From Amphiscolops sp. MND2022 (taxonomy: Eukaryota): 64,000 bases of DNA. Below the pieces are notes generated by a model. That model saw only the letters and a program-made list of their open reading frames with translations. It did no database searches and had not been told where the DNA came from. Below, in pieces: positions 8,695 to 58,759 of this stretch (position 1 is the stretch's first letter; each line of letters opens with the position of its first letter). Both the position numbers and the translations under genes were made by a program. The stretch lies in contig OZ076409.1 in NCBI GenBank assembly GCA_964187785.1, forward strand, positions 12,278,001-12,342,000. Direction: 5' to 3'.

Positions 8695-8702
8695 TCCTCC
8701 CC
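8695..8702 (-). promoter_or_regulatory. Polypurine tract
   Basis: GGGGAGGA on the minus strand immediately precedes the 3' LTR. Confidence 0.8.
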
Positions 8703-17294: not shown

Positions 17295-17297
17295 CTA

Positions 17298-21480: not shown

Positions 21481-22050
21481 CAAACGCTCAAGGCTTCGCC
21501 CTCACCACATTTGGTCTGTTAGGCCAATTTTGGGTCTTCACAAACAAAAATCGCTAATTTTTTTGTTTTCAAGTAAATTAGCGGGTTAAAAAATTTTGTT
21601 CCTAGCCTGATAGGTCTAGTGGAACGTTTTTCTTGTATTGCCACTGGCCGTACCCTCTTCTGAAAAATTTTGGCTTTTGTAACTAATGATGACCGATAAA
21701 TGGCTATTGTATTAAAATGAAAATTGGCTGGTAACTTATTCAATATTTCGTTGGAGGGCCTCAAAAAACTGTTTGACGATAACGTTTTCTGATATCTGGC
21801 TCGGGAAAAAGAATTTTAGGTGGCTCGCAATGCTCTGAGAAAAACGAACAGGGCTTCGCCCTCACCAAATTTCGTCTCAAAGTCCAAATTTGACGATTTC
21901 AAACAAAAATCGCCAAATTTTTTGATGTTTTTGGTAATTTAGCTAAACAAATCGTTCTGTTCCTGACCTGACAGGTCTGATAGAACGTTTTTATTGTATT
22001 CCCATTGGTCGTACTATCTTCTGAAAAATTTCGACTTTTAAAAGTAACCA
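21481..22050. repeat. Diverged ~360-bp-period duplication in the Gypsy 5' leader
   Basis: GGCTTCGCCCTCACCA..AAACAAAAATCGC..GGTCT..GAACGTTTT..GTAC..TCTTCTGAAAAATTT recurs at ~21492 and ~21852. Confidence 0.75.
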
Positions 22051-22621
22051 AATCGAAATTAGAGCTATATAGGGTGTTATGGCTAGCTCGCTATATTTTT
22101 TCAGAAAACAATCGGAATACCCAGTGGGTATTTTTCTCAGTTCTTACTAATGGGAGTACGCTTGGGAATAGGCTTTTAAAGCCACAAAAACAAAAAAGGA
22201 GATTGTAACCCAGCCGATTCGTAGTGGTCCACCAGTGGGTCAAGAGGGTGTTGCCGTGAAGGACGTCCCACCGTCGTCACAGCTAGTGGAGGCGCTCACA
22301 TCACGTCCCTGCAGTCCCAATACATTACAACTAAGCTGAAATGAGACTACAAAACCCTTTAAAACAGAATCCGGTTAAGCCGGATGGTTAATCTCGGTAA
22401 GCAGAAACGGTGTCAAAACGGTACTTTGCCGTAAATCAGTTATTTCTCTTTCCAGACCCCGGAAACATGCAGGAAACGCAGGAATTCAGCTAGAAGAAAA
22501 CCTAAAAGGTTTGATTAAGGCAATAAAAAAAATCTAGGACTCTCCAAAATGTTTTCCTAGATCTGGACCCTTCGGGGCCGGAAAGCAGAAGTTGCTCCTA
22601 CGTGTACGCAATATGAAAAAT

Positions 22622-22639
22622 ATCCCTTGTGGGGCGCCA
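22622..22639 (-). promoter_or_regulatory. Primer-binding-site-like sequence (tRNA-Lys-like)
   Basis: TGGCGCCCCACAAGGGAT, similar to the Lys-type PBS TGGCGCCCGAACAGGGAC, but 16 nt inside the 5' LTR edge. Confidence 0.65.
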
Positions 22640-22655
22640 TAAAAACTATCCTAGA

Positions 22656-23366
22656 TGTAACGTCAAGCTAACAGCTACATTCCAGAACCGGGACAATGCC
22701 CAGGTTGCCTTAACAAGAGACCAGTGTCTTACAACAACCTAAACATTAGTTTTTGGTCCCAAATGGTCTCTGTAGGGACTTTTCCAAGACGCCGAGGAGA
22801 CTCCTCATATTAGAGCTCCGTGGCGACGTGCCGGCACACTCAAAGTCCGGACACGTCCCACAAGCACGTAAAAACGGTCCTAAAGGCTTCCTGCGATCCT
22901 ACATACCTCCGAGGTCTGAAAACAGGGGTTTAGTCAGAGCACATCTCAATTAAATGAATAACGTCTAAAATCAACACCTTCCAGGTTTACCATTAACAAA
23001 CACCTGAAAATCTGCCAAAATACTACAAAACAGCACTGGGGAGGCATTCTGAACAGTTCTCAGCGAGTTTTGAGCTTTGGGTTCAACTCACGCAAAAATC
23101 GCACCTTCTTCTTCATCTCTTTTCCGGCTCATTCTTGCGATTTTCCGGTTTTGATGGCACAACACTGGGGTATTGGCTAGTTTCTGCTTCTGAATATCTT
23201 CTTTCGCTGCTTTTCGGTCTTCTCTGTGGTCTGGGGGGGTCTTTTTGCGTTGTGTGTGCTTCCTTTTCGATTTCAACGACCTGCTAGGTCGGCCATTTTG
23301 ATTCGCACACTTTTTGGGTATTCTTCGAATTTTTGAAATTTTTGACCTTGACTGGTGGACGTTACA
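22656..23366 (-). repeat. 5' LTR (711 bp)
   Basis: Direct repeat of 7984-8694 (offset 14672) with TG...CA ends. Confidence 0.97.
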
Positions 23367-24460: not shown

Positions 24461-25413
24461 TCGAATCACTCGGAAATTTCGCGAAAGTGAAATCAATTCT
24501 TCCCACCAATTTACAGAACATACCAGATCTGAATGTTTCTAGAGTTTTTTCTAGAAGTTTCTAAAGTTTTTGTAGAAAGTAAACTGAGGCTGAACAATTT
24601 CGGACGACGTTCATTTATATGGGACAGTGATAACGCAGACTATCAGTTTCAACAATCTGGAAAAACGAAAGACTGTCAGAAAAGATATTGTCAAGATTCT
24701 TACCATAACGATGAGTTCATTAAACTCTATACAAGGACAACAAGGACAAGGTACTGAAGTCGGCAAATCCACAATGGACGCTAACAATTTTGTCGAGTTT
24801 ATCCCTATATTGCACATTCTGATATGTTTCAGATATCGCGGTTCCATTCTATTTCAGACTTTGGACGATCTTGTTCGAAATTTGAATAGTCCTAATCAAT
24901 CTGAATGGGTATTAATTGCTTCATCTATGAGTTCATGCTTCAACGATGAGTTCATTGGTTTTAAATAAGCGGTGACAGTCCATACTCATAAAATGGATTG
25001 AAAAATTTGTTGAGTTCGAAAGCTGCTTCTGTACATTAATTCCCATAGTTCCCATGCGTAATTCCCATAGTTCCCATGCGGTTTCCCGAGAAGTCGTTTG
25101 ATACATGCGGGAACATCAATTTCACTTCTAATTGTACGTTTACCTGTAAAACTACGTTTTTATTTGTACGTTAACCTGCAATCAAGCTGATGTATTTCAT
25201 TTTTCATGTTACGTTTTCACCTTGTGGATGAAATTATTGCCACTTACGGGTACGAGAATAAATGCTGATGAGTCAGAATGTTTTCCATTTTTTGATTGAT
25301 GAATAAAGGCAAAGTTCGTTGCAACATCTGTCATCTCTAAAGGTATTGATGCTAAATTGTTTTCAGAGAGCCTGTAGTTTAAAACTATATGAAGGAAGCA
25401 GGGTTGAGGTTGC

Positions 25414-25665
25414 ATGACAGACCATTTGCGTAACCGCTTTGCAAATGTTGCTGAACGATTGACTCATAGCTTCACAGAATTAACATCCGAAAGTGGCCCA
25501 GTGCCGGACGGTCCGAATGACTATTTCCTGAGCGAACGCCATCCACAGTCTTCTACTGATTTCCCCAAATCGGAGGAAATCGAAGCAGATAACCGTCCCG
25601 TGATGACTTTCCGCGATAGATCATCCGAGTTCTCCTCGGCTGTTAAAAGTCTGCAAAGTCGTCAG
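25414..25665 (+). CDS. STX5: Syntaxin-5 exon 1
   Basis: MTDHLRNRF...MTFRDRSSEFSSAVKSLQSRQ|GT. Confidence 0.9.
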
Positions 25666-28600
25666 GTATTTTGACATTATTTTGAAGTCGCCTCATTGTG
25701 GTAGCATGTTTCTGATAAACGGCGCAATGGCCGCATCTTTACTGCATGCCAACTGGCTAAAATTCGTGTACCATTGAATGTGCAAAATATTTCATCACAT
25801 TTTTTCTGCTTTAAACAAGCATGAATGTTGAATAATTACTATTTCACGTCACTTAGGTGTGGAGTATCTGACGATAAAACTTTTTTTACTTCCAATTTTT
25901 TTACGATATTTTTATTTCTATAAAACATTCAAAGTTTAGATGTTGAATGGCACAACTCGGGGGAATGGAGCCGCTCGAACTATTCAGGAGCGAACACATT
26001 TCACCAAACTAGCGAAGTGAGTTGATATTTATGCGTAATGATTATTTTTCTTTTTCTGATAGGTACTAGAATACTTCTCTTCTCTAGAAAAGTGGGTAAA
26101 GACTTGGCAAGTACATGCGTCAAACTGGAGAAACTAACAATGTGTAAGTTGCTTTTGGGTTTAATCAATTTATTGCCAATTTGATTGGATCAATTTTCAG
26201 TTTTTGTGTTTTTCAGTGGCCAAGAGAAAAACCCTTTTCGACGACAAGCCTTTGGAAATTCAAGAGCTTACGTACATCATCAAACAGGTTAGTTATGAAA
26301 ACCACTATATAACTTTCGGACAACTTTCGTGTGATGAAATGCACTGGCAGTAAAGGCGCTTTTCTACTTTGATTGAAGTTTTTGGTTCCAGACTTGGGCT
26401 ATGTGCGTTGAATGAAACTAGTTCTCCTAAATTTCACTTGCAAAAGACTCGTATATGAGGACAAAAACGGTTACTGGATACTCTCGAAAGGAAAAATAGT
26501 TTAATGCAAACTTAAGTGCATCGCAGGAAAGACAATATGTTGAACAGATATGAGCGACAGATAACGAGTAATTTCTAAAAATGTTCCATTCGTCTGAAAG
26601 TTCAGAGAATGGGACTTTCTCCTCTTCTCTTTATCTATCCTCGCATTACTATGGACCGTGCCCATCGAAACCAGAAAGGGCAATGATTTAACCCTAATGA
26701 ACCTAGTAGTACTTTTTTGCAATTTCGGTTTCCTTTTGCCATCAGCCTATATTCTCTAGCACAGTTTTTTTTCAACAATTCATTGGTACCCATCTTGATT
26801 TGAATGGCACAAGCATTATAAAAGTGAATAATTCCAAAGCCGAGAAAAATGAGTTTTTTGCACAAAATATGGTTATATTGTTCCAAATTTCAGTTTTTGG
26901 CGAAATCCAGTTTTCTCAGAAGTCTTTGACCAATAGAAAAAAGCATACCATTCCACAAGTCCTTGTGCAACAAACCCCAATAATATCCTGTTGTTACTAC
27001 AAGCCCTCGTGCAGCTCACCTGACCAAAATTGAAGCCCAATACCAGACCTTTTCAACTACTTTAATTTAAAGAAAAGAAAATATTATCAAGAGATAAACT
27101 AAAGCGGATATTATTTTGAAATAATGCTATAATTATTTTATACCATTCTTTTGATCTTCGTATTTTGCTCTTCCTCGGCGTCATACCTGTAAAACAAATA
27201 CATAGATGAGGGTGGTGTCGATACGCTGCAAGGTATAGAGCCTCTCCTCACTGTCAGTTCTGAATGGATAAATTGCTAAACCTCGACAAATGGAGGGCAA
27301 ATTTATGGAATGAAACACCTAAATAAATGCTTGTCTGTAAATAGAGTATCGGAATTATATTGCTCATCAAAATAATGGGAGTTTGAGAGCCTCCCCTCTT
27401 CGACAATTGCGTTCATGGGCGACTCGGGCTATCTACTTTCTCTGATACACAAAATCGAACCGAACAGAATCTCTGAATTCCGATCTGGTGTGGGTGAAGT
27501 CATATTTCTGTAAGGAGAGCGCATTGAGCAAACTAGGAGCACGTTTTCCGGATGGCAGCTTCGTGGCGTATATATCGCTTCAGTTAATACTTCTTTCGGG
27601 TGTTCCATTTTCGTTGTTTTTGTTTTGTGAAGTCGCGCATGATTCGGTACTGGGAGTTTTCCGCGGCACTAGGAGTTCCATTTCTTTCAGACACTTGCTC
27701 AACGGTACCGATCGTGAGTAGTCTCCTGTGCGGTTATCGGGAGAGAAGATGTTGAGGTCGCCGTTCTTAAGATGGAGAAAAAGCAGTCGCTCCTGTTCGG
27801 GAAAATGCCCATTTTCCGAGATTGTCGTCTCTGCCTTGTAAGAATGGCACCAAGTTTGGGAACCAAAGTTTTTTTTACACCTTGTGTGAAAGTCGTATAC
27901 GTTGCGCGGAACCTTTCTCACGTGAATCACTAAACACCTAGCGGTGAAAGCAGTGGGGTATACGCGAATTTAAAAAATGAATTTTGTGATATAGAGTTTA
28001 TGATGATCGCGTAAGGAGTTATGGTTGAAATGCCAGTATAAACTTTCTGGATTATTACAAATACAACTTGTTAATGTATAAGTTTAACTCGATTTTCTAG
28101 AAGAGATTTTAGACACTATTTCGGGATGTTACGAAAGATATAACCAATTTCTTACGTTCTTTTCAAAGTTGATCCCATTTTAGAAATTATTAAGAACTGA
28201 CATTGCAGTAAAGAAGCGAAAGACCTAACCAATTTTTAGGAGTCGGAAAAAATTTTCGACTATTATGCAATCGTGCTGTTTTTTTTGTTTTTTTTTCTCC
28301 CGACCTTTTCATGAAAATTTCAAATTTCTCAAAAACTGTCCATACGATTTTCACGAAATTTTGCACAGTCATTCTACACCCAAAGGGGCCCCTGCGTGTG
28401 CAAAGGCATCAAAATCGTATGGCTTGGATGTGAGAAACATAGCCAAAATTAGCCCAAAAATGGCCAAAAAACAGCCATTTTTCGACTTTTTTCGATTTTC
28501 TCAAAAACTGTCCATAAGATTCGAACCAAATTTTCTACAGTTATTCTACACCATATTAGAGTCCTATATGTGCAATGGCATCAAAATCGTATGGCTGGGA

Positions 28601-31600
28601 TGTGAGAAACATAGCCAAAATTAGCCCAAAAATGGCCAAAAAACAGCCATTTTTCGACTTTTTTCGATTTTCTCAAAAACTGTCCATACGATTCGAACGA
28701 AATTTTCTACACTTATTCTACAGCATATTAGAGTCCTTTATGTGCAATGGCATCCAAATCGTATGGCTGGGATGTGAGAAACATAGCCAAAATTAGCCCA
28801 AAAATGTCCAAAAAAAGTCATTTTTCGATTTTTTTCGATTTTCTCAAAAACTGTCCATACGATTCGAACGAAATTTTCTACAGTCATTCTACACCATATT
28901 ATGGTCCTTTATGTGCAATTTCATTAAATTCGTATGGCTGGGATGTGAGAAACATAGCCAAATTTAGCTCAAAAATGGCCAAAAAAACAGTCATTTTTCG
29001 ATTTTCTCACAAAAACTGTTCATACGATTCGAACGAAAGCGAGTCAGAAGGAAAAAGACTTAAGCCGACTCCTTTACCGCATATGCGGCTCTGGTTTACA
29101 ATCTATTCAAAGTAGTTTCGAATCTATTCATTTTAGAAATAATGAAGAACTGACATTGCAGTGAAGAAGAAACAAGCAAAATAGCTTAAATTGAGGACAA
29201 TCATCATCCGTAACGTGAATAATACCATATATCAAAAAGTCAAAGAACAATATGATGTCCAGATGCAAAATCATTAATAAAATTAGAATGTTTCAAACAA
29301 GAAAAGTAATACGTCCTCAGCAAAAATGTTCAGTTTGATGGGCCGCAACTTGGCAGACCTTTTTATACATGGCAATAGTTGATTGCGGACATGATCTCAA
29401 GCTCATTCTAATGGCAGTTTTGTTCCCGTTAATCCTTCTTGGTAGCCTCGCCAGTGTTAGCATCAGGTACAGGGATAGCAGCGTTAGAATTGTTAGCAAC
29501 TCCGTTGGAAGTGTCAGATGCTCCTGTAGTAGTACCGGTCGCTGATGTTCGTGTGCCAGCGCTATTGTTAGATGATCCTGAAACGGTTCCCCTAGCGGTG
29601 GCCTGTTGGAAGGAAGTTCGTGCTGGTGATTGAGGCCGGGGAACAACATAACCAGCTTGGACTGTCCCGGGAGTATCGTGAACAACAGAGCGCTGATGTG
29701 CTTTGTATTGCAATTCTTTATAACTTTCTCGCTGCAAGATGGATGGTTGGATGACACCTATTGATAAAACATGAAACGGCGAGTTGTTGGACCCAATTGC
29801 AACAGCAGCTGTGGAAGGCTTCAGCCAACCATGAATTCGGAAACAGCCATTATCATTTATGAAGTTGACACATTTTATAACTGCATCCTCGAAGTCGAAC
29901 TCATCAAAAGTGTCAGTATCTGGGACGAGAGAGTTGTAACCGTCAGTGAAAACTGTAACGACTCGTTTTGATGTGAAATATACACTAAGGAAGCCGACAC
30001 GCTCTCCTTTCAGCTCATCACAAAAACCAATTCTAATGTGACACCTCAAGAATGTTTTTTCAAGTCCGTTTCTTTGCAGCCACATAAATCCTTCAATGTT
30101 TGACCGTCACAAAACTTACCGCTTTATTACTGAGACACGGTACAAACTGAAAGGATTTGAAGGGTTACCGTATTAAAGCAAAAATGTTGGAAATCTGCCA
30201 TTTTGGGAGAGTATTTTGGCAGAACTGCTGAACAATCTTCCAGGAATATAGGGACTACGGGCTCGGCAGTAGTCAATAGAGGATTGTCAGAGTCTTGCAG
30301 AAGTTTTTCGTCTCCGTGACGCGGAATCAGTAGTAGACATGTTGCACCTGGGTGTAGATTGGGCGAGAAACGTAACAATTGGCAAGTTTCGGCGTCGTTG
30401 GAAGTGAACATCCCGAAAACTCTGTCACTACCTGCCTCAGCAAAAAGCAAGAAACGATGAAAAGCTGCTTCCATAGTTTTTGCTTTCTCTCGTATGCGAT
30501 ACATTCTTACTGGTGTCGATGTCTTCTTCACGTGAAGAAGAATGCTTGGGAGCTTTGTCCTTTGAAATCCTTCTTTGGGACTAATAATATCTTCTAAGGT
30601 CACTCCTGAGAATCTGGAGCTCGCCAAATTCATGACACGTTCCAACGACAAATTTGCAGAAATCAGCGGCATTTTGTACAAATCTGAAGCTAAAGTAGAC
30701 GATCAGATACGATAATTGATGAAACTTGTTGAAGCAAATTCAAATAAAAATCGATGCAACCTTTATATTTTTTATTCAGTCATCAACAATGTTAAAAATT
30801 CGTTTTGAAGGCTATCAGAGGAAATGGTATCTATTATAAACAGTATGTTTACGATTCAGTAATTTATTGAATCTATTGTAAAACTTTATAAGATTTAAAT
30901 TTTGAAAGTAATGTATTGAATTCCGTGAGAGTACAATGAACTATGGAGCATAACTTATGGGCATCTTGAAAAGTGATAATGTATATGAAAAAAACTAAGG
31001 AAAAGAGGTTAACGAATCATTGAATTGCACATTATACTACAAACAACAACCAATTTGAGGTGAATATTGCAACGAAAGTGAAGTCTCATCAAAATAATTG
31101 GATCACAAAAATTACATATGATCGTTTCCGAGTAACAACATAAAAAAAGCTCAAAAAGTAGTTTGAAAGAATTTTATAAAGTAATCATTCCGCTATAACT
31201 TACATGACAACTAAAGAGTTGTTTGATGGGGCAGGAGAAAAAATATCAGTTTATGAAAATTGTTGCAGGCCGCTAGTTGCATGCCATAACGGAGACATAA
31301 ATTTTCCATATAACAGGATTCAACAGGCCGAGAAAATTCTCACACCAGTTAGCTAAGTACCTTGTACGAACCAGGTTAGTTTGTAGATCAAATAAATTGG
31401 CACATGTCGAATATGGTAGAGATAAATATAGCTGTTCTTTTGTTATTCATGGTCGATGTCTTCTTCACGTGAAGAAGAATGCTTGGGAGCTTTGTCCTTT
31501 GAAATCCTTCTTTGGGACTAATAATATCTTCTAAGGTCACTCCTGAGAATCTGGAGCGGCTGTTCGCAGCATGGGATATAAAGACAGGTAACTGAGGCTG

Positions 31601-34600
31601 AGATATCTCAGACCAGACTGTTGAAAGAGAAAATCAATTTAATACGGGAGCTCCTGTATCACGTTGTTCACCGGTCGCTCCCGCATCGAGAACTTTCAAC
31701 ATTTGTGATTTTTCCCACCACAACGATTCGCAGCATAAGTTCTTGATTATTAGGAAAAGCGTTTTGAATAGATTGGTGAGCAATATTGACAACGTCATCA
31801 GGGCTTGCAGATCTTCTGTTTGTCCTGACATAAAAGGCGACATCTGAGTGTATTTGTTGTTCTAATTGTCTGCGCTGTCGTTCGTTATTGGACATGTCGG
31901 CTGTATCGAATCCTGTAATGTAAGCAAATACACCCCAAGGACGTCGTTGAATTGGTTTTGTAAATAATGCTCCTTGCCCTGCATTATGTTCATACAAAGG
32001 TCGTGACAGACATTGTGTTTCTCCGACGTAAACCAATGATGGATAAGGACAACTAACAAGAATATACACATAGCCGAGCTTGGAAGTGGGTAGACATCGG
32101 AAAAAAGTTTGAAATGTAATGTTTCACAATGAATAAATTGGACACGAGTGGGGCCTGATTCTGACATCAACATTTTCAGGAAGCTGTCAATGTAAGAAGT
32201 TTGATGGGAAATTCGAGCAATTGCGAGCTTAATGGTAGCCATCACGTCATCTTTTGGACCAACGAATGTTATGTTACTCAGATTTGGTACACGACTCAGC
32301 AAGACAAGTAGTTGTTCTCGATGCCAAATGGATTAACTGCGGTCAGTCGGTGAGATTTTAGTCTGAATTGATGGTAGAGTACAACCTATTGCTTTGTGAA
32401 TTGTACTAGAAATATAATTTTTCAAAGGAAATTGAGTTCGTCTGATATGAAGATAGGAAATCACATTCCCAGTTCGTCTGTTATGACAACTGGTCTCCAG
32501 CCAAGTGGGTTCTGTTTTAGGCATTGGTATGTTGCGAACACCTGGTGGTGCAACCCTAACAGTAAAAGATGCAGCCGAAGGAATAGGTAAGTGTAATAAC
32601 ACCGCTAATGTTCCTTGTGCAACACCAATTGCCTTAATGTTCGCAGTGACACGCATAACTGCACCGGTGTATAATATTAGTTCTTCAGGTTCAAGACATT
32701 TGTAAGACAAGTGATCAGTAGCTTGTCGACTGGTTTGTTTCCAAACAGATGAACCACTTACACTTTCTTCGTCGCGTGCTGACATTTTTACGAAGGGAGT
32801 GTCTGTTAACGCAACTCCAACCAGGTGTCGATTGAGAGCAGCAGTCTCAGCGAATCTTGTACTGACGATCTTGATATCGGTGTTTGATATAGAGTCGTCC
32901 CAGTCATTACTGAAGGAGCAATTATCATTTATCAAGTCACATAAAGTATTTATATCGTCGCTGTCTATGTGGGTTTTGTCTAAAATCTCCAACAGTTGAC
33001 GTAGAGGCCCGGGACTTGTGCGGACATATTCAGCAAAATAAAAGAAATTGTAGTTTGTTAGCATTGAAGGATTTATTAATATTTCTGCTTTAGCAGGAAT
33101 ATTATTGAAATCTGGAAACGTCTACTTTTTTTCAGAACAATTTTTCGGACGATCTGAATAATTCAGATATTTTGTTCGGCAGTGAGTGTAAGCGACAGAG
33201 CTGTCGAAGACAATTCAATTCTAGTGCGATGGAACGAGCGAGTGGTAATTATCCATTCGTATGCTGACGTCATTGAGATGAAGCGAGCGAATGTTCGTAA
33301 TTGTGCTTTCGTTGCCCCGAGTTATTGAGATGAAGCGAATGAGTGTTAATTATTCGTTCGTTGAGAGCTTCGCCTGCATTCAAATGCGAATGCGAAACTT
33401 CGTCTACGCTTAGTAGTTATATTTTCTTTAGTCCGAGAAGAATTAAAGGCGGTGTAAACTTGTACAGTGATTAATTGTGCCGTAAGTAATGATTAAACAG
33501 AAGTGTATTGGTATTCCCGATATGATTCTTTTATTAATGATTTTTTTGTTTCAAAAAAAAGATTAAAGCAGAAATAGTACTGAGCCCCGGAGGGGCCTAT
33601 TTTCCAAACTGAAGTTCCTTCAGGAGGCGGTAGTTGATTGGGGTCACCGGATAGCAAACACAAAATGCCACCAAACGGAAGGTTGTTGCCCTTTACCCAC
33701 TGCATAACTTTGTCAAAGGCAGACCAAAGTTCAGCATTGAGCATGCCAAACTCGTCAAATAGAATTACATCCATCTGTTCCAAGAAAGATAAACGCTTTC
33801 TATTATTCAGCAATCCACTGATGGATTTTTCAAGAACGTTGACGTTGAGATTTTTCTATACAGGTAGACATGCCAAGTGATGCAAATGTTCTCCGAGCGA
33901 TTGTGCTCTTTCCCCATAAGTTAGAGCAACTAACAGAACACTTGTTTTTCCACTGCCGGGTCTTCCTATAACTAATTGGTGCCTAGTGAACATGTTAGAA
34001 CCTTGTGCAAAATTATCGATTTCATTTTGTACAACTTCCAGTGTTTGGACTTGTTTTTGATACGAGGTTGAGGTTTGTCCGGTTGTATGCAATACTACTG
34101 GTTGCCACGCAATCGGGTCAGTTTTGGAACAACAGACAAGATCTATCACACTGGGAAAGTTGTTTACTTTTCCAGTCTGGAGCTCAAGTGCGTTAAATTT
34201 TTCTTTTCAACAAGGTGTATTGCAACTTCTTCGCCTAAAACATCGACAATGTCTCGTTCCAGAACAGTTGGTGGATGATTTAGGTACAAGTCGTTGTCGA
34301 TCAGCAGACTTTTTAGTATCCTGTAAGCTGAGAGCAAGTACTTGTCGAACGACCTTGTTGCTCCGTGAAGAAACATAAGAACCTTCAACGCGTATTCTCT
34401 CGTGATGGCATTATCCTCGCTCAACGACACATTTGATGCGTTTCTAATTAGACCAGCGACCTGAAAGGACTGCTTCAATGATGACTGGGTGAACAAATCA
34501 TACTCTGTAGCGAAACGTCCCATTGTAAAAAGAATGTGGACACAAAATTTTAGAGGATTCAGTGGAAGAACATTTGATGTTACTATTTCAACAGTTTGTA

Positions 34601-37600
34601 CATTGTCTATGAGATGTTCATCGTTGACCCCGTGGTCAAGGTAGTTTTGAGCAATTTGCATGACTTTATTCAACTTGTGAATATCACTCACTGTTGATAA
34701 CCTTGCATTACAATACTTAACAAAGTCGTAAGCACATTGGCTTCTGAGGTAAACTGATCTGTTAAGACCGTCTATCCAACCATTGGTCGAAATACTTTTC
34801 TTAGAACTTCGGTAAAAAAAACCTGAAGTATTCGAGAGGCGAGTCTATTATAAGCAAATCCGGGGGGCGTATACCAAAAATTGAGAGTTTATCCGCGTGG
34901 AATTTGCTTGTCTTCAGATCCATAATGAGTAATTTTTGTGACGCAGTAAAATCACCATGTAAAACGTTCATGTTACATATTGGATTTGAAACAAAACCAG
35001 GCCCTTCCTTCTCATTTCGTTGTACGATTCCACCTCTGCTGTGTCGTGGCAAAGTGGAACATCTAACAAATTCCTTTGAACAATATACGTGTGGATAATT
35101 GAGTACGAACCAAATGGACTCCGTTAGACAAATGGTTTGTGCTTCAACGTGTTTTTGTTGTCGCTTTTTCGAATTCTTCAGCGCAGCCTTGACTCCACTT
35201 ATTTTTTTGGTAAGGATTCGCTGAACGTTAACGGCTAAGGAGTCATCTGTGTTTGCAGACACTATCTTCGAAGTTGCACGTTCTTCGATACCAGCCGCAT
35301 ATTTGGCAATGTACCTCGCACAAAGATATCTGTCGCTAACTTGCACATTCATGCTAGACTTTGTCAAACGGAACAGGCTGATGTTCATGGGGGAAAGGTG
35401 CTCACCCATGTCAGCGGGGTAGAGAAATTTGCCATCCACCCTTCAAACTTTTGCAGACTTCAAAATCGTCATCAACGCCTATTCTGGGGAATGCCAAATC
35501 AAGTTGTTGCATTAGACGCAATGCTTCTGAACTATGGGGAGCACGAATTGGCATATAGGAGTACACATGCGATGCTGGGTATATTGGAACGCGATAGATG
35601 GGACTACCGTCGTCTTTGGTTTTCTTATGACATCTGAAGATAGCTTTAGAACAATCATGTGATTGTATAGCCATGGCCAGTTTGAAAATCCGATCTTGTT
35701 CGATCTGTGATAACGGCTTGGAAAACGCTTTAAGTTGACAAATTTCATTGTGTATGGCTTTTCCTGAACAAACAATTCGGCGTTGAACTGTGAAATCATG
35801 GTTATCTTCATCTGTCCAAATAACAGCATGAATATGAGGCAAATTACCAGTCGTTGTTTGAAATTCATAGCGATACCACATTTGAGTGACTTGGCCGAGC
35901 GGTTGCTCAGGCGATTTCTCAGTATATCGCATCAGTGCTTTTGAAGCCCGTTCCCAAGCTCTGGTTAAGATCACCATTTCTGCTTTAACGGCCGCTTGCC
36001 ATCTTTCTCGTGTCGGGATTTCAATGCTTTAAATATGGGAGCAACTCCGAAATGTTCATCCAGGTTACACGTGTGGGTTGTAAAATAATTTGGTGAATTA
36101 TTTGCAATCATTGCCGACCACTGATTCACACTTTTTCGAAAGTCGGCTTCGTCAAACTTCAGTACTGATTCCCCGGCAGTTTTACATTTGTTTTTCTTTG
36201 GGATTTCTTCTAGACCACGATCCACGATGAGAGAAGAATGGGCGTTTGCCAAATAGTAATTGTAGACAATATCGAACAACCATTGAATGTAACTTTCGTC
36301 AGTTGAGCACAGCAAGGAAACATTTTCAAACGAGTCATCATGTGATCCACCACAGTTGCGAAACCGAACTTTTTATTTTGATCATCTGAGAACAGACTAC
36401 TACAAAGAGAACCAGGGTAGTTACCGTCTTCCTCGCTTTTGTAGAATATTGTTGAAAATAGCATTGCATCGGGGTAAAGAAGAGGTACACTATTTCCTTT
36501 AGAGGTTGCTACAATGTTTTGAAGCATTCGGCGACTGTGATCATTGCCTGTAATAGGCTGACGATTCCGGCGCAGAAGATGGCAATCCGTATTAAGTAAC
36601 AGATGAGACGGTATTGACTTGTCGGACACATTAATATCGTAAATGGGCATTGGACCAGAATCAGTGATATCAACATTCGAAGGAAGATCCTCGTCTTCAA
36701 GAACAGCTCGCGGAAATTGCTCCAATGCGTCATTTTCAACATAAAAATCCCAAATATCTTCTTCGTCGGTGTCTGTATGTTCTGAAGTTGCCTCAAGTTT
36801 GTTAAATTCAGGTAAGTTCAACTCTTCAAAAATTTCCTTGTCAAATCCATCATCGAGTACAGTATTTTCTTCAACTTCGGATTGAATATCATTATTACGA
36901 ACTTGAGACAGTGCTTCGTTGTCATCTTGCTGAGTCGGTTGTTCAAACATTGAAAAATCATTTTGAATAGGATCTTGTTTAATTTTAAAGGTCTCACAAT
37001 TGGACAGCGATACTGTGTCAAAATGTTTTTTGCAAATGCTCACTGCACAATCATCGTTAGCACATCTAAACTTTCCAACTCGTTTGCAGTTTCTCCCAGA
37101 ACATTTAAAATTAGTTTTTCGTGGGTTTTTAGTGAGAAAGGAATTGTGTTTATCACCGACAATTGTGCTTTGTCCGCCCAAAAACTGCAAGTACTCGGCT
37201 CGACAACTCCAATATGATTAATTTGTGATATTAACGTACATGCAGAAATTCCAACGTTGGTGTGCTTCAAAAAAATCATTGTCGAAATCTTGACGAAATG
37301 GCCTCTTATTGTTGTAGTCGTATTTCCACGAACCCCATTTTTTCTTTCCGTGCCGTGTGTGAATGGAGAGAGATGATTCACTAAAAAAGGTTAACATACG
37401 AAGTTCTAACTTGGCGTCACCAACAACAATTTCAGTAGGAAGTAATTCAGCTGATACTTCACTTCGACTGATGCATTTGAAAACAACAGCTGGAACAATC
37501 TGTTGAAAGCCTTGCACATCATTCCTTGACAGAACGTCGACTATTGGTACTTGTGGAGTACATGAAACTAACAATTTTGTGACTTTCTCCACAAGATAAG

Positions 37601-40600
37601 CATCATGGAATGTTCCAAGGAAATGTGTAAGAAAAACCTCAGATTTGGTCCTTTGAGACGGTCTGATCGTTGGATTGTGATTGAAACAGCTACTAGCAAG
37701 TTTTGAGACGTGCTCACATAATGCGGTATCAGAAGCTGCATTTTCGTTGACTAAAGAACAATATTCGGGATTGAGGACCATGTTACATAATAAAAACCAC
37801 AATAAAGGCTCGATGTTTGTGGGAACGCTTGGGGGTTGACATCCGAAATCAGTATTTATTTGAGCAAAAAAAGCTTGATAAAATTTATTGTTAGCGTTGT
37901 TTTCTGCTTGACGTTTCATTCCCATAGCTATATTGAAAGGTACATTGGTAGCGGAATTCAGTGCTTGTTGAACCACGGCATCACTAGGACAAGGGTTAGA
38001 CACAATGGTGTTTTTAATTGATTCCTTTATCTCTCCAGTTGCGACTAAATCATCCAATAATTGTGCAACGTCAGATCTGTTTTTAGCAGTGAGACCTTCA
38101 GCACTAGGCATGGTGTCTTCTGCATGCACATCCCATTTCCTCTTGAGACCTTTTCGCTGAGAACTAGCTCCAGCATAACCCACGTCCTCTGCCACGATGC
38201 AGTATGTGTGAACAGAGTATTTCGCTTTCATAGGGTGTGCAACTTTAGACTGAATAACAGCGGGCGCAAGTCTATTAGAATATTTGAGAGGAAATGAGCC
38301 AGTAGCGGGATTTGTAGGAGGATGGACGTATTGGAGTTGAGACCCTTTGTTGTGGTCGGAACAAGTTACAATTAAAGGGCCGTGTTGGCTGCTAAGGTAA
38401 ATGAAAGGTTTTATTATGAAACAATTGTGTTCTTCTTCGTCTAACCAATCAGACCGAGCTCCATTTAGATGTTTCCTGTAATCTGCATTAAAAAATGTAA
38501 ACGAAGGAAAAAGATTATTAAGAAAATGTTGAAGTGAAATGTAACCAATATATTCTTTGTCCTTGAACGTGGTACATCCGAAGGGACATCTAACATCAGG
38601 AAAAGCAGTTTTATTACAGGATTCTTCAATTTCATCCATAATATTCATCTTTTTAACTTCTTATAAATGATCAACTTTAGCGGTAACATCAGCAAATTGA
38701 AAATGTGGTAAATTGGAAACGGCCGCGTATCGTAAAAAATGCTGCCAAAAAGTCTGTAACGACGGTGGTAATATGTACCAAAAATGTTTCCCACGTGTTG
38801 GTATTTCAACAGACACTAAACAAGTTAACAAAGCCGATGGCCAGCCGTATTCCCATCTGTCTGATGCAGTATCCCGGCGCAAATATGTATAACATAAGTC
38901 ACAAACGAGAACACTGACTCGTTTCAACTTTCGCACCAAGTCTTCTTTTAAGTATGGAGTTAACAGACACCTCTTGCAACGGACCACAATTAAGACGACG
39001 ACATTTACAACATTCTTCTTGATTTAACGGAATCTGATCTAATTGACTGAGGTCAGGAAATAATGATATTACACTACTGCTGGGAATGACTGTAACAATT
39101 GAACTTACTGTTGGTGATTCCACTGAGGCCGAGATCATTTCGTTCTCAGACCGTTGAATACTCACTTGTTGGGTGGTGTTGCAGTTGTTACATTCAGAGA
39201 GACTTTTAGCAAACATACCACAATTTAGGCATTTACTTACAGATCGTCTCTTTCGAGGAGGCATTTTGCAAATGACAAAAATCTGAAAGATAATAAAACC
39301 TTGTGAATGTAGTCAAATGAAATATCAAAAAGCCCATATGTTAAACGGTCCTAAGTAGACGAAGAAATCAATCAGAAAAATATTTTAAAGTTACCTATTT
39401 TTAAGAAAAGTTCATAAATTACGTAATTTACGTTTGCCATTGAGTAACACTTTTTGCAATGCGTTTCATTTAGATCTAAATTATTGTGAAAGTATTTTGA
39501 ATGTCGCATAATTTTAACAAAAGTTCATCAAAAAAATCTTCGTTAACCATTCTATAATTGTTGCAAAAGTGCTTGAATATCGTAATCTAAGTAAACCATT
39601 ATGAATCACTGTTTGAGATGAATTTCAAGTAGTATAAAAAGGCTGAAGAACTGGATCAGTTAATCAAAAGTTTTATAGAGTAGATAAACAGTTTTCAATT
39701 GACGAACTCAAAACTAATAAAATTCAACTCATCATCAGTATTTGAAACAATAAAACACAAGTCACAATGCGTAAAATAACTAACAATTGAGAGTTTAAAA
39801 GAAATGGATTCAATAGGTGATGACAAACCAGAAATCAAAATTCAAAGTTGCATAAAACAAGTGAACGCAACAACACCAAAACTATTGATTGTAATTCAAT
39901 TTTTCAAGATACTTTCGCTTTGACGGGCTATTTTTTCCGGCAATTCTTCGTTTTCCAGGGCCTTTCGTGAGTTCCATTAAACTCTCTCATTGTTGCAAAA
40001 TCTCGAAGCATTTAATTTCCAGGTTTTTGTTAGGATGCGCAACTGTAGTGTCGAAACATTTATACTCTGGCGGCAGATATCGTTTCATGTCCAGGTAAAT
40101 TATTCCTGGCGGAGAGACATCCGGGAGGCAGGAACCCAAATCAATTACAGAGTCATTCCTGCGGAAAAACAGGAAGGCAACAACTCCATAGGCTCTACAT
40201 TCGTCAAGCAAGTCTTTCAATCCTTTTTTTGTCAGTGCCGAACTCTCTTTGAAATTTGATAACGAATTGTTTATGGCATCGTGCCAAATGATGATAGGTC
40301 GGTTATTCTTAAAATCAGCGTTCTTTAGGGCGTACATCAAATTTTTGTTGGGATGTCCTGCAACATTACTGGTAAATGCCATCCCGGGTTCAGATTTAAT
40401 TTGCTTCAATTCGTCTTTTGTAACGCCCAAACTGTGCTTTATCCCGTCAAGCGAACTGGCACCAATAACATTGAATTTCAACATAGCGACTTGAAATAAA
40501 AGACAGATCATTTGGACTACGTACATGAAATCGCCTAACAAACCAGTTAAAGTATTGAACATTCGAAAAAACAAGCACGTACGTGAAAAAAAAAAACGAA

Positions 40601-43600
40601 AATAACTTAGTACGTAACTATCAATCCAAATCAGTAATTTAAAAAACTTTCCGGACAAATGAGGCCGAGTATAACTCATGCCGTAAAATGTTGTAAAATT
40701 CTTGAAAATTTAAAGCCGATTTAACGTACGTTGGAATCCTACTAAATATGTATATCAAAACTAAGGCCGAGCATAGCTCATGCCAAATAAAGAAGCAAAA
40801 ATTTAAAAGATCGAGGCCGAGTATTACTCATGCCAATTGAAATTAAAAATTATTTGCAGACCATAAAACGTTCACGTAATAAATTTCAATTTAAAACATT
40901 TAATTTAAAGAAAAGAAAATATTATCAAGAGATAAACTAAAGCGGATAATATTTTAAAATAATGCTATAATTATTTTATACCATTCTTTTGATCTTCGTA
41001 TTTTGCTCTTCCTCGGCGTCATACCTGTAAAACAAATACATAGATGAGGGTGGTGTCGATACGCTGCAAGATATAGAGCCTCCCCTCACTGTCAGTTCTG
41101 AATGGATAAATTGCTAAACTTCGACAAATGGAGGGCAAATTTATGGGATGAAACACCTAAATAAATGCTTGTCTGTAAATAGAGTATCGGAATTATATTG
41201 CTCATCAAAATAATGGGAGTTTGAGAGCCTCCCCTCTTCGACAATTGCGTTCATGGGCGACTCGAGATCTACTTTCTCTGATACACAAAATCGAACCGAA
41301 CAGAATCTCTGAATTCCGATCTGGTGTGGGTGAAGTCATATTTCTGTAAGGAGAGCGCATTGAGCAAACTAGGAGCACGTTTTCCGGATGACAGCTTCGT
41401 GGCGTATATATCGCTTCAGTTAATACTTCTTTCGGGTGTTCCATTTTCGTTGTTTTTGTTTTGTGAAATCGCGCATGATTCGGTACTGGGAGTTTTCCGC
41501 GGCACTAGGAGTTCCATTTCTTTCAGACATTTGCTCAACGGTACCGATCGTGAGTAGTCTCCTGTAAGGTTATCGGGAGAGAAGATGTTGAGGTCGCCGT
41601 TCTTAAGATGGAGAAAAAGCAGTCGCTCCTGTTCGGGAAAATGCCCATTTTCCGAGATTGTCGTCTCTGTCTCGTAAGAATGGCACCAAGTTTGGGAACC
41701 AAAGTTTTTTTACACTTTGTGTGAAAGTCGTATACGTTGTGCGGAACCTTTCTGACGTGAATGACTAAAGACCAAGAACTGTGCTAGTGAACAATCTGAA
41801 TATTATTCGGGACGAATAGAGGAGTATTAACTTTTTCGAGAAAATCTTTCTTGACAATAAGATTGCATGTTCGTTTGAAGCCAAAAGCAACCGTTTTTAG
41901 TCGGCGCATTTTAGTAAAAAATGAGCCCGACTATTACCGTGTCTAGTTTTTTTTTCGTCAGATAACAGAATGTCTGCGTAGTGGAATTTTTTTACAGAAG
42001 TACTGGATCGACAAGCGGAAACCGAAGTTATTTGCGTTTTACTGAAGAGGAGGCGTAGGATCGAAAAAAGCGCTAGCGTTTGTTTCACGGTTCGCTATAT
42101 CCCAACTTCTGAAGCGTATTCCGAGCACGAAAGGTACCCTTACGGGTTTCGAAATTGAGACATTCATTTAAAAAATGCCCTGAGCATATCCTAAAATCTT
42201 GGCGCTTTAGGTTCCTAAGGCGTTGCCGCCGATAGCGTACTAATTTGTCGTTTTTGACGTAATTGTTCAGTTTTTGGCGTTCCTGGAGTTGTTCCCTTTG
42301 AGAAACTATGACTCTCTCATTGACGAATAATAACGAGAACGATTTATTGGAGTTTCTGATCGCGTTGATTTGTGATTGTTTGGAATCGTTCCGATGTTCT
42401 GGAGCGCAGGTTTTTACTAGTTAGACTTGAATGTGTTTTTGGTATCGAGTAGAAGCATTGCTTCCGCTTGGGACGATTAAAAGAAATTTCGTAACGTGAA
42501 TAGCATGTCTAATACCCCATTTCTGTCCGATTGATCCTGGAGTTTTACGCACTTCAATTGGTCTGACACAGTTGGTTCTTGTCGATGGGTATTAAACGGC
42601 TGGCGTTATAGACAACCAATTCTTCTGTCTCGAAGTCACTTGTAGCTACGATAGAAGCTAACATGTCCAATGTTTCGCCGAGCTCAGCGGAAGACTCTGA
42701 AATTTGACAAAATCCGATGCCACTCATTGAACCATGGCGTACTCCTGGATGAACCGTCCAGTTAGTCAAAAATCCCGAGATATATTGCAATGTGTCTTCG
42801 TACTGATTTGAGACTGCGTGATTCTCAGAAGGTTCTGACTGTGCCGGGTGCTTGTCGGCGAGTATCTGGTACACAGCTCATGTTTTGATTCGATCGTCCA
42901 GGGCCAATACTTGTGTTTTTTGTGTTTTGCCGAGACATGGTAAAGCGTTTCAAATTTCACTAGCTGTCATAAAAGCTGGAAGAAAAACCATGTTGAAAAT
43001 GTCGATGTGTACTCTTCGGTGTCTTGATTTCGTTGGCCTGAAACCCCCAGTTGTCGTGGTTTTCCTCCAGTTAACCGCTTTACCATAGTACAGTAGTCTG
43101 TCATGAATGATTGGCATGTGTTAGAAAGACGTTGCCGTATGTTTGCTATATCATTTTTGAGCAAACAAAGTTAATTTTGATGGGATTGGCTATCGTTTAG
43201 GTCGAAAGTTAAAGCAATGCGAGAAAGTTTCTTCTCTTCGTTTTCAAATAAAGGAAGAAATTTGTTCTATGTTTTATGTTGAGCCTCAGACTTTTGACGT
43301 TATATCCGAACTATATTGAGTTTTAGTAAAGAGGAGGCGGATGTTCGAAGCAGGAGTTTTCCTTGAAAACATCATACGCATATTTTAAAAACTGCTTTTT
43401 GAGCCCTAGATATAGCGCCGACTTTAGACGTTCCCGTCTTGTTTAATTTTTCCTCGACTTCACCCTGAATAGAAGATTGTGAATAGATTTTTTATGTGCC
43501 CTGTCAATCACAGGTGAGCAAGGAGGTGCTGTGTTGTCAATAGTAATTTGTTGCAGGATCTGAATTCTCTGAATCAACAGATAGCGCAATTGGGAGAAAT

Positions 43601-46600
43601 CAACAGGAGTAGAAGTTCCACCAATTCAACGAACAACCACATCCAGAGTCATGCATCCACTGTGGTAGCCGCGCTCCAAACTAGATTAGCCAATTTATCC
43701 ACAGATTTCAAGTCAGCCCTCGATATCCGTACAGAGGTAACTAAAGCGCATTATAGCACAACACTTATTTGATTGATACAGCGCTCAAAGCACTAATCAG
43801 AAAAGCTGGCTTCGTAATTTTTTTTTCAATTTGCGGATTTTCGCAATAAGTAGGTTGTCTACATCAATCAATTGTCAATTTCATGCTTTGTCGTTTGCAG
43901 AGTTTTGAGACCGCTAATCGGCGAATTAGCGGCCGCGCAGAATTTTTTCAGCGATCTATTGGCGATTCAAATTAGCGGCAACACCAAAATTTCCTCGGAG
44001 TTTCAAGTTGAATTTCAAAAAATACCACTTCATCTGTAAAACCCACATTGTATGAAAAATTCCCATCTTTCAATTTTAAAACATCCTTGAAGTCAAGCAT
44101 TTGATAATTTGAAAAAAGTTCTTCAGCGAAATAGCGATTTTGAAATTTTAGCGGTTCATCGATTAGCGAAAAAAAATTAGCGATGTCAAAACTCAGGGTG
44201 TTTGGCTCCGAAAGAATATGAAGTTTGTATTTAGAATTTGAAAGCTTCCAAAACAAGAAAGGACAATTTCTCCCAATCCAATCCCAGTTCGAACAGTAGT
44301 GCCTCCGGTGGCATTGGCGACCGAAGCGTCCTTTTCAGAGACGAACAACTTGCAATTCAACAACGGAACAGTCCCACTTCATCTGCAATAAACATTCCCG
44401 CAGGTAACTCAATCGTCTTGTTCGAAAGTTGGATGACATTTTAAACAGCATTGTTTTTAGTCGGCGCTTTTCGTAGAAAAACGCAAACTATAGTAGTGAC
44501 TTTTCTTTTTTTTAAGACCAACGAAGTGACAGATTTTATAAGCTGGGTTCCGCTAACTGCCACACTAATGTAGCTTCTGCTTCTGATTTTTTGAGGTCTG
44601 CCAAGCAGAAGGACGTGGGTTCGAGTTCCGCCCTTGACCAAAAATTTTTTTGTGCATTGTATCTCGGCGTTGAGAATTTTTCGCAATTTTTTTTAATGGC
44701 TCTAAAGGGTCCCCCTTCATTTTTTTCTACTTTGCAAAAGAATGAATGTTCAAAAACTCCCAAAGGGACCCCTTTCACATTTTTCGGCACTATGCGACTT
44801 ACCGGAGACCAAAAAAATCGGAATTTTCAATTTTTTCCTCATACGGGTACTGTAGAAGAGAAAACTTGACACTTTGAAGTCCTTTTGCTATTTTTGAGCC
44901 TTAGATATGGCGCCGACTTGGTCCGTTCCCGGCTTGTTTTCTTCTTTGTTGCACTTTTTTAGGAAACTAAATTGAGGTTATAAGCATCAGTCGTAAATTC
45001 ACAATCACATCAGTACTAGAGTTTTCAGTTTTGTTTCGTGACCATTTGTGACTACCAAATGTTTTTTTGCTTGAATTTTCTTGATTTTTCCAAATTCCTG
45101 GAAACTTAATTCCTGGAAAGATGTTTCTGCATCATTCAATGCTTCTTGGCTCGGAGAAATGTTTTAGAGCTTTCATAAATCATGAAAGTGAACTGTGTTA
45201 GAAAAAAAATTAACCAGACTTATCTGTCATCTATGTCAAAACAAGTGGTATTTGGTTTTCAACAATTAGTGACGAGGCGTCCAATTGTTACGTCATTCAA
45301 CGCTGACGTGTGGTCAAAATATGCTTTAAAGCGTATTTAACCAACCAGTGCCAAAGTCATGAAGTACTTATCGAAGAGTAGCAGACAACTTTGAGCTGTT
45401 AGCTGAAGATGAGAAAACATTTGAAGGCTTCACAGAACAAGATTTCCATTCTTCTTTTGAAGTGTTAAAAGTTCAAATTAAAAATGAGTAGTTTGAGTAA
45501 AGAACTCGTTGATGATTAGTGTCGTTGAGTTTTGACACAGTTTCTGAAATTTCGCGTACGTACTTTAAAAGCTGGAGGCGTCCTTGTGAACTATGGGCAC
45601 GTAAAATGTTTCTGAGGATTCCGACCCATGGTTGGTTGAAAAACGTTCTAAAGTATTTTTATATGTTTTAAAACAGTTTACGAACTGAAAACGCAATTCA
45701 CTTCATTATCACAAAAACTATTCGGAAAATGAAGATGAATTCAGCAAGCGCATACAAAAGCGCCAGTTTACGGACTTTCTCAGGTTTCAGTCTATTTCGA
45801 ATTTCAGAATGTACGTGACCCATGGATGGAAAAACCCCTCTCGAGACCAGCTTGGGACGGTGTGAAAGGTCTGCGAAAATGAAAAGAAACAATAGCTGTT
45901 TTGAAACACCCCTGGAAAATGGAAGTTTTAAAACTTTTGAAGCACCCTGTTTTAAACATGCCAACTCTGTTCGGACCTGCTATTTCAGTATCTGTATTAT
46001 CAGATGAAATTATACTATTTTTGGAAGTGAAACGTCTCCATCAAACTATGAAATTGCATTGCAATAAGAAGAAACTTCATTTTTTAGTCGGCGCTTTTCC
46101 TTAAAAGAGCCGACTATAGTCATGGTTTTTCGTCAGTGTTTTTTTTAAACCACCTGAAGTGACCAAAATAGTTCTACCGAAAGTTCTACAAAATTTCAAA
46201 TTTCACCTGTTGGCCCAGGGAACTAAACCAAACGGTTTTTCTTTTTTTTCCGCGTAACATTACCGGGCGAGACTAAAGGGTCCCCCTTTCAATTTTTTTC
46301 GAGTGTTGCGACAAAATGGATGTTGAAAAATCCCAAAGGGTCCTCCCTTTCAGTTTTTTTTCGACATTGTGAGACTCATTTTTTTCATGAAAGGGTCCCC
46401 AATTCACCAATACTTTGACATTTTTAAGTCCTTTTGCTATTTTTGAGCCTTAGATATGGCGCCGACTTGGGCCGGTCCCTTGTTGAAATTTTCATGGAAC
46501 TCAAGGATATGTTCCCACTCGTGGTGAATCGAGATGAGCATAATACGTTTGAGAAAACTTACCTCCGAAAGTCCTCCACTGGACCACCAAACTATTGGAA

Positions 46601-58280: not shown

Positions 58281-58593
58281 ACAAGCCGGGAACGGCCCAA
58301 GTCGGCCCCATCTCTAAGGCTCGAAATTAGGAGAAGGACTTCAAAGAGCCAAAAAACGTTATATCCGAACTTGAAAACGTTATATCCGAACTTTGAAAAC
58401 GTTATATCAGAACTTTGAAAACGTTATATCCGAACTTTGAAAACATTACATGCGATCTTTGAAACGTTATATCCGATTTTTAAAAACGTCTGAACAAATG
58501 TACAGAAAAGTAGACATTCAGAGTGAACAGAAAAAAACTAATCACTGTAATAGTCGGGCGTTTTTCCTTAAGAGAAAAGGATCAGACTAAAAA
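58281..58593 (-). mobile_element. HINE-like element (family A) with 21-22-bp tandem repeat AAAACGTTATATCCGAACTT(T)G; duplicate at 61469-61765
   Basis: ACAAGCCGGGAACGGCCCAAGTCGGC end, central minisatellite and GACTAAAAA end. Confidence 0.75.
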
Positions 58594-58759
58594 CATTTTG
58601 GAGCAGTGAATCAAATTCCTTCTTCACTTTTTATGCTGTTTTTTCATCGCTAAAAATGATCCTATCTCCATTTCCCTGCTAAAGTTCATCATGGAAAACA
58701 CTTTTGTAGGCAAGTTTAAAATCCACGCAAGAAATTGAAGTGGTAATTTTCGAAATCAA

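Follow-up and report, generated by a model that had tools for sequence, protein, structure and literature searches.

Direct repeats around a Helitron-like element with a predicted GIY-YIG nuclease appear to be a one-off partial tandem of foreign DNA

Introduction

Do the long direct repeats that bound a Helitron-like element at a single locus belong to the element, or did they arise with this one copy? The locus lies in a window of 64,000 nucleotides (nt), C1:12278001-12342000 of a 1.07-Gb eukaryotic assembly, which was analysed at its full length; further copies of the element are named here by their contigs (C1b, C5, C8, C10 and C1675). An earlier note on this DNA had described a cassette of three minus-strand open reading frames (ORFs), one of them encoding a Rep-Pif1-GIY-YIG protein, between the repeats, and had proposed a distinct class of HUH element with repeats resembling long terminal repeats (LTRs), produced perhaps by rolling-circle overshoot. 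As far as sequence comparison goes, the 'LTR-like' repeats are a one-off partial tandem of this copy, composed of foreign DNA and the element's own 5' end, and not a sequence built into the element.

Results

The repeats, at 27061-27938 and 40899-41773, are 97.5% identical over 878 aligned columns, which bears out the two ~97% identical 880-bp repeats of the earlier note, and they are the sole direct repeat pair of this kind in the region, where a search for inverted repeats found none. Their divergence amounts to 19 substitutions and 2 indel events, with 2 differences within repeat positions 1-140 (compared with 40899-41038) and the others further along. The window contains no N; 12,960 bp of unique element sequence lie between the repeats, which have different neighbours on both sides. 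TG..CA ends and a short target duplication are absent from their outer edges, as the earlier note had observed; with a chimeric repeat and neither reverse transcriptase (RT) nor integrase in the interior, the locus lacks the characters of an LTR element.

The repeat is a chimera in which 140 bp from the 5' region of the element are joined to X, a fragment of 738 bp from a non-LTR retroelement that encodes RT and is unrelated to the element. In the left repeat, positions 1-140 (27061-27200, minus strand) are a second copy of the element's first 140 bp, homologous to the 5' region of C1b, C1675/C5 and C10, and positions 141-878 (27201-27938, minus strand) are a second copy of X, which abuts the element's 3' CTAG. 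In the right repeat, positions 1-142 (40899-41040, minus strand) hold the 5' region of the element at its original place, with the block T(G/C)TAT.TGTTTTACAGGT... starting at ~41040, and the remainder (41041-41773, minus strand) is X, upstream of the 5' block. Read in the orientation of the element, the locus runs flank B, X, element (5' block to CTAG), X, the element's first 140 bp and flank A, i.e. 1.06 units of X plus element arranged head to tail. The inner junction of the tandem lies exactly at CTAG/G, the left repeat beginning with the very base that follows CTAG, and the outer edge of the right repeat is preceded by CTTG/G (slashes mark the junctions). Insertion of the interior between two pre-existing repeats was considered and rejected, as the right repeat passes seamlessly into the element.

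When the genome was searched with the repeat, matches of at least 97% identity were confined to the two copies themselves; all other scored matches were 67-77% identical and lay in X, with the exception of 71 nt in copy C1b that match the element-derived part at 93%. Because no other place in the genome exceeds 77% identity, this 71-nt match aside, the 1.07 Gb searched contain neither solo repeats nor another locus at which this sequence bounds an interior on both sides, two arrangements that the earlier note had envisaged. The proposed class with LTR-like repeats is likewise not borne out, the repeat consisting of the element's 5' 140 bp and foreign X and being absent from the other copies.

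X (repeat positions 141-878) shows 67-74% similarity to the 3' portion of an abundant family that encodes RT and is subject to 5' truncation. Its members have one constant and one variably truncated end, and its 1001-codon ORF gives an RVT_1 match at E 2.4e-9; by these features the family is a non-LTR retroelement. X has the same orientation as the element and retains ORF remnants corresponding to residues 594-802 and 963-1001 of the retroelement ORF; relative to the related family, ~650 bp of internal sequence and the final ~95 nt are missing. This ~95-nt 3' tail is absent from X and also from both flanks in the window, which speaks against X being a resident insertion; a model in which the element had inserted into a resident retroelement copy was rejected on these grounds. 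The possibility that X is a complete member of a family of its own was rejected as well, the related family being ~95 nt longer on one side and kilobases longer on the other.

Termini were defined by BLAST of the window against the other copies, as the points where family homology stops. At the 3' end homology stops at 27937/8, at a CTAG (27938-27941) in which the element ends as ...CACCGCTAG, and this end is common to the window, C1b, C8 and C10, i.e. to 4/4 copies having it; their alignment defines a terminal block (27938-27968, minus strand) of the form ...TCGTATAC.C.ACTGCTTTCACCGCTAG-3'. The CTAG fits CTRR, the criterion for elements of the HLE1 type, and the statement in the earlier note that there is no CTRR end is incorrect, as the tetranucleotide stands at the inner edge of the left repeat. 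At the 5' end homology stops at ~41040, with the minus strand reading T(G/C)TAT.TGTTTTACAGGTACGACGCCGAG..., in the window, C1b (three tandem copies), C1675/C5 and C10.

Of the further HLE1 characters, a hairpin upstream of CTRR was sought in DNA folds of the last 80 nt of the four copies, which gave no shared stem (-1.0 to -4.9 kcal/mol, with differing pairings). The 5' block begins with TG in 3/4 copies and with TC, the HLE1 start, in 1/4. The bases before the 5' block are A, A, C and T and those after CTAG are G, G, A and G, which corresponds neither to the A-T insertion of HLE1 nor to T-T flanks. As for HLE2, its terminal inverted repeats of 12-16 nt have no counterpart, the best inverted match being 8-9 nt long, AT-rich and non-terminal, and neither an AP endonuclease nor DUF6570, an HLE2 marker in the available text of the HELIANO paper (PMC11417382), was among the Pfam matches (E <= 0.01) of 16 family members.

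Beyond the right repeat, 41774-41890 is single-copy and unique in the genome. It weakly resembles ~40 nt found upstream of the 5' block in C10 and C1b, a resemblance that is not significant (118/2000 shuffles reach the score); between C10 and C1b themselves these ~40 nt are shared, with 0-1 of 1000 shuffles reaching the score. Further out, 41891-42232 and 43292-43449 are copies of a dispersed repeat (3514 genome candidates, 40 scored at 80-87%) of a family that also flanks C1b. The similarity between the window and C1b past the 5' end (42022-42232) was tried as a part of the element and rejected, being due to this dispersed repeat with its thousands of candidates.

A genome search with the element interior revealed a low-copy family; its 3' end (293 nt) and its 5' end (391 nt) have matches nowhere but in the copies described here. 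The copy at C10:36408230-36419946 (73-89% identity to the window) is near-complete, with both termini and three open frames, which measure, from stop to stop, 275 (ORF1), 2391 (ORF2) and 466 (ORF3) codons, ORF2 continuing open into the adjoining stretch; the same protein is found in the database at 2411 aa. ORF2 has Pfam matches to Helitron_like_N (1037-1149), PIF1 (1766-1898) and GIY-YIG (2246-2305). C1b (C1:9.752-9.763 Mb, 80-88% identity) is rearranged and non-autonomous, lacking the Rep-helicase; its 5' 1.9 kb and a 296-nt spacer are present in 3 tandem copies, followed by at least 7 units of a 1040-bp satellite, all within C1:9752400-9771000. A 3'-truncated copy (68-79% identity) occurs twice, on C1675 and again on C5 (69.306 Mb), and C8 carries a small fragment. 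Beside the truncated copy, C1675:38001-44408 is an array of a 113-bp satellite extending over more than 6 kb; C1675, a small contig, may be a haplotig, since the same copy and flank are found at C5:69.306 Mb.

For the three copies with both ends, the 1000 nt after CTAG were compared with a stretch made up of the 2000 nt that precede the 5' block and the element's initial 500 nt. In the window, nt 1-877 after CTAG match -733..+140 around the 5' block at 97.5%. In C1b, nt 1-281 after CTAG match the copy's own upstream flank at -354..-58 with 84% identity (90.8% over a 238-nt core), in a repeat that is unrelated in sequence to X and has the same topology as that of the window. C10 shares the termini of the window, has no X and has nothing abutting its CTAG; a block at +324..+824 matches -1446..-950 and -900..-455 upstream (83-86%), and because this copy is embedded in satellites of ~0.9-1.06 kb, that repeated block is not interpretable. 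The copy's own upstream flank is thus re-copied directly after the 3' CTAG in 2/3 both-ended copies: by these alignments the topology of an abutting repeat recurs, yet the repeated DNA is flank or foreign and not element sequence. The earlier note had regarded copies without the repeats as evidence against its proposal, and for the 880-bp sequence itself this is what the intact copy on C10 presents, with both termini and no abutting repeat.

The three minus-strand ORFs reported earlier between the repeats are present, and one of them is a Rep-Pif1-GIY-YIG frame by its Pfam matches (Helitron_like_N at 35411-36028, PIF1 at 33493-33855 and GIY-YIG at 31668-32123); their frames are broken. In comparison with the proteins of the intact sister copy, the ORF1 remnant (39885-40797, minus strand), with a reading frame at 39987-40709, has 1 stop, and the ORF2 remnant (31637-39204, minus strand), which spans an N-terminal Cys-rich region, a Rep with HUH motif and two Tyr, a Pif1 helicase and a GIY-YIG domain of SLX1/UPF0213 type, has 9 frame changes and 6 in-frame stops. 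The ORF3 remnant (29429-30702, minus strand), with a tandem OB-fold of RPA-like type, has 3 stops and 1 frameshift as judged by tblastn with an intact homologue. Because of these stops and frame changes relative to the intact sister copy, the window copy reads as dead and old. From the divergence of the repeats, ~8 frameshifts and 2-4 stops are predicted for a 7.2-kb ORF of equal age; since the 9 and 6 observed in ORF2 fit this prediction, the copy was probably intact when the duplication arose.

Further insertions were found inside the element. A 106-bp segment at 31452-31557, in the spacer between ORF2 and ORF3, is 100% identical to 30515-30620 within ORF3, 937 bp away. C1b does not have this inserted copy, which resembles a templated insertion of recent date. 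A dispersed repeat at 33277-33496, visible as a gap in the protein alignment, has inserted in the helicase region, with copies at 46822-47017 and 58824-59040. A nested high-copy repeat at 28217-29129, absent from C1b, contains four to five internal tandem units of 172 bp and is flanked by a target duplication of 40-41 bp (28176-28216 = 29129-29169); in the genome, 40 scored copies are 96-98% identical, out of 5887 candidates. An Rfam scan of 26000-43000 returned no family at the gathering score, so that neither the repeats nor the 172-bp units show a hammerhead or any other known RNA.

The element's main protein belongs to a wider family. Nineteen database proteins of 2160-2672 aa align with ORF2 across the region searched at 25-41% identity, most of them with the same three Pfam domains; among 16 family members, Helitron_like_N was matched in 13/16, PIF1 in 16/16 and GIY-YIG in 13/16. 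In the alignment of these 16 proteins, H1144/H1146 of the HUH motif (PHIHA), Y1317/Y1321, the Walker A motif G1769-K1775 and many Cys/His of the first 1000 residues are invariant. The helicase region matches Pif1 helicases in the PDB (E 1e-9 to 3e-6), and a PDB sequence search for Helraiser or another Rep structure gave matches to helicases only. With a Rep that has the HUH motif and two catalytic tyrosines, and a Pif1-type helicase fused C-terminal to it, the family is Helitron-like; the earlier description of a Helitron-like HUH element with a fused GIY-YIG domain is upheld by the Pfam matches, the HUH motif and the two tyrosines. The best PDB matches of the GIY-YIG domain are 1ywl, a UPF0213 protein (E 1.5e-4), and SLX1 (6seh, E 7.5e-3), and this C-terminal domain is a predicted nuclease of the SLX1/UPF0213 branch. 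Some relatives of the family lie on Joint Genome Institute (JGI) contigs of 10.7-11.6 kb, and one cluster formed at 90% identity comprises 165 members. Scans with one family protein gave one weak, unrelated match in metagenomes and none in viral contigs.

For ORF3, 158 relatives were found at E <= 0.001. By sequence, a Pfam family was assigned in 0/36 relatives and there was no PDB match below E 0.39. An AlphaFold2 (AF2) model of an intact homologue, built on a 36-sequence alignment, reached a predicted local distance difference test (pLDDT) score of 79.9, and its best PDB matches in Foldseek include baculovirus LEF-3, RPA, RADX, CST and the Oxytricha telomere-end-binding protein, all of them OB-fold binders of single-strand DNA, with probabilities of 0.85-0.98 and TM-scores of only 0.2-0.25, as expected for multi-domain chains. 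On this model, ORF3 is an RPA-like tandem OB-fold protein, predicted to bind single-stranded DNA. ORF1 has no Pfam match, and its fold model (pLDDT 35.6) was unusable; the label 'SGNH-like' that the earlier note had given it is neither confirmed nor excluded, with weak leads from a language model to GDSL/SGNH clusters (ranks 8, 14 and 15, score 0.90).

On the strand opposite to that of the element, an exon for the Syntaxin-5 N-terminal (Sly1p-binding) motif was detected at 25408-25671 (plus strand; E 9e-5, 22 bits, with a cut-off of 16.6). Since this exon is followed downstream by the element, a location in an intron of STX5 is plausible. Elsewhere in the window, a Ty3/gypsy LTR retrotransposon occupies 7983-23366 (minus strand), with 712-bp LTRs at 7983-8694 and 22655-23366 that are 99.7% identical and with frames at 9996-14603, 14607-17294 and 17301-19277 for protease, RVT_1, RNase H and integrase; its GC fraction is 0.46-0.50, against 0.38 around it. 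RVT_1 fragments of other retroelements were found at 2236-2871 (plus), 3930-4829 (minus) and 49337-49816 (plus), with E 1e-17 to 7e-24. The stretch 57219-63150 comprises two tandem units of ~3.2 kb (95-97% identity), made up of dispersed repeats that also occur at 44677-47076 and 33277-33496.

Discussion

The explanation that we favour, tentatively and at somewhat less than an even chance, is that the repeats are the product of rolling-circle copying to more than unit length, on a circular or tandem template consisting of the element and captured X. X would have been picked up through read-through past the hairpin-less 3' end. The circular or tandem template of element and X would have been copied by the element's rolling-circle machinery, with a start at the CTAG nick site; copying would have overrun the CTAG site once and halted 878 nt further on, and the resulting product of more than unit length would have been inserted at the locus. 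Read-through is plausible because a conserved 3' hairpin is lacking in 4/4 copies and because, according to the available text on Helraiser, read-through increases and new ends arise when the 3' hairpin is lost (PMC4778049). The same text gives CTAG-3' as the cleaved tetrad of Helraiser and CTTG-3' as an alternative end, and it describes both the capture of flanking DNA and circles with joined ends that form and transpose (PMC4778049). At the locus studied here, it is a CTTG that precedes the outer edge of the right repeat. The duplicated piece begins precisely, to the nucleotide, at the 3' nick site, as is the case in a second copy, and rolling-circle read-through gains support because C1b, too, has its own upstream flank re-copied right after the 3' CTAG. 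The extent of decay in ORF2, by which the copy was probably intact at the duplication, and the lack of the retroelement tail in X also speak for this explanation. The overshoot suggested in the earlier note is accordingly a live explanation for the window copy, helped by C1b, without being the mark of a class.

Several observations weigh against it. Only three copies have both ends, and the third, on C10, has no abutting repeat, only a block of 450-500 nt at +324 downstream and at -455/-950 upstream, in satellite DNA. The model requires a start at the 3' nick site together with an arbitrary stop (...AAATTAAA at 27061), which is unlike CTRR. The 106-bp, 100% identical templated insertion within the element points to local template switching that is unlinked to the termini. 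Finally, the exact 5' end is uncertain: given the ~40 nt common to C10 and C1b ahead of the 5' block, the element may in truth begin further upstream, and X may have inserted into its 5' end.

Template switching is at the centre of the main rival account, to which we give a somewhat lower chance, and in which the duplication arose in situ. A transposase nick at CTAG would have become a broken end at replication, and template switching of the kind seen in break-induced replication would have carried this end to the upstream flank, by microhomology invasion 733 nt upstream of the 5' block; 878 nt would have been copied before the end was rejoined to the downstream flank. The junction exactly at CTAG would be explained, as would the resemblance between CTTG/G before X and CTAG/G, which provides 1-4 nt of microhomology; the 106-bp segment is a second templated insertion in the same element, and the topology of C1b, with another flank, would be expected if nicks at CTAG recur. 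This account leaves unexplained why X lacks the retroelement's 3' tail, which is absent from the flanks, and it requires a transposase active on this copy. By the amount of frame decay, the duplication would date to the insertion itself or to about that time, a timing that templated insertion in situ allows but does not predict.

We consider it distinctly improbable that a full dimer, two units of X plus element, came first, whether by tandem insertion, by unequal exchange or by integration of a circle through homologous recombination, and was then reduced by a deletion from position 141 on. Head-to-tail arrangements of Helitrons have been reported in bats, according to the accessible part of the source (PMC4778049), and C1b has its tandem array of the 5' 1.9 kb and 296-nt spacer; however, two events are required, and no remnant of a second element is seen past 27061, where flank A matches no copy.

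That long terminal direct repeats are a regular part of the element, in a distinct HUH class, is very improbable: a direct repeat does abut the 3' end in 2/3 complete copies, but from copy to copy these repeats have unrelated sequences, drawn from foreign or flanking DNA, the intact copy has none abutting, the genome holds no solo repeats, and the conserved termini lie inside the repeats. We give equally little credence to an assembly artefact, such as two haplotypes of one junction both being placed, for which a 2.5% divergence within the haplotype range and the double presence of another copy (C1675, C5) might speak, since the window has no N, the repeats have different neighbours 12,960 bp apart, and no simple collapse or expansion gives such an order.

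A broader version of rolling-circle copying to more than unit length, which we regard as doubtful, is that the family may represent an undescribed Helitron-like branch, marked by its ~2400-aa main protein, its OB-fold protein and a third ORF, and by a CTAG end that lacks both hairpin and inverted repeats. Such a branch would replicate circular templates from a single nick site, at CTAG, and would as a habit leave copies exceeding the unit. If so, each insertion would carry a terminal redundancy composed of the last captured spacer and its own 5' end, and the resolution or integration of these redundant copies might be a task of the GIY-YIG nuclease.

The repeats do not warrant listing this locus as a new class. 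What it offers is a RepHel protein fused to an SLX1-like GIY-YIG domain, kept at full length in 19 database proteins, and an intact three-gene copy in this genome. Flank re-copied exactly after CTAG in two independent copies is a naturally occurring trace of what happens at a rolling-circle nick site, which studies of Helitron-like termination could exploit. For annotation, the locus is a warning: where long direct repeats flank a transposase, they can represent a partial tandem built from foreign DNA.

Direct repeats at the ends of mobile elements also arise in Penelope-like elements, as pseudo-LTRs, and in partial tandems of rolling-circle elements, such as the one-ended products of IS91, in both cases from a partial head-to-tail arrangement and not by an LTR mechanism. 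Here, by contrast, the repeated piece includes foreign retroelement DNA, the unit boundary is an HUH nick site and the element has no RT of its own.

Among Helitron-like elements, the family resembles HLE1 (Helraiser/Helibat) in its HUH two-tyrosine Rep fused to Pif1, its CTAG (CTRR) 3' end and its accessory gene for an RPA-like OB-fold protein; it differs from HLE1 in having no conserved 3' hairpin, mostly a TG start at the 5' end and flanks other than A...T, and in possessing a C-terminal GIY-YIG domain and a conserved N-terminal region of 1000 aa. Its protein measures ~2400 aa, against the >1500 aa given for RepHel in the available text of a review (PMC6431247). With Helentrons/Helitron2 (HLE2) it has in common a nuclease domain C-terminal to RepHel and extra ORFs, but the nuclease is a GIY-YIG of SLX1/UPF0213 type instead of an AP endonuclease, and there are no DUF6570, no terminal inverted repeats and no T-T flanks. 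In the literature covered, which excludes Repbase and Dfam, a search for Helitrons, Helentrons or RepHel proteins with GIY-YIG, SLX1 or URI yielded as the nearest case HelenSM92 alone, a Sphagnum HLE2 family for which the accessible text mentions a 'captured' GIY-YIG domain (PMC11417382). Rotifer Terminons have stand-alone GIY-YIG, GDSL esterase and Rep genes, as summarised in the accessible part of the review (PMC6431247). Within the literature covered, the family studied here is a little-known and in print barely described variant of Helitron-like elements, one that combines a Rep-Pif1-SLX1-type GIY-YIG protein with an OB-fold protein.

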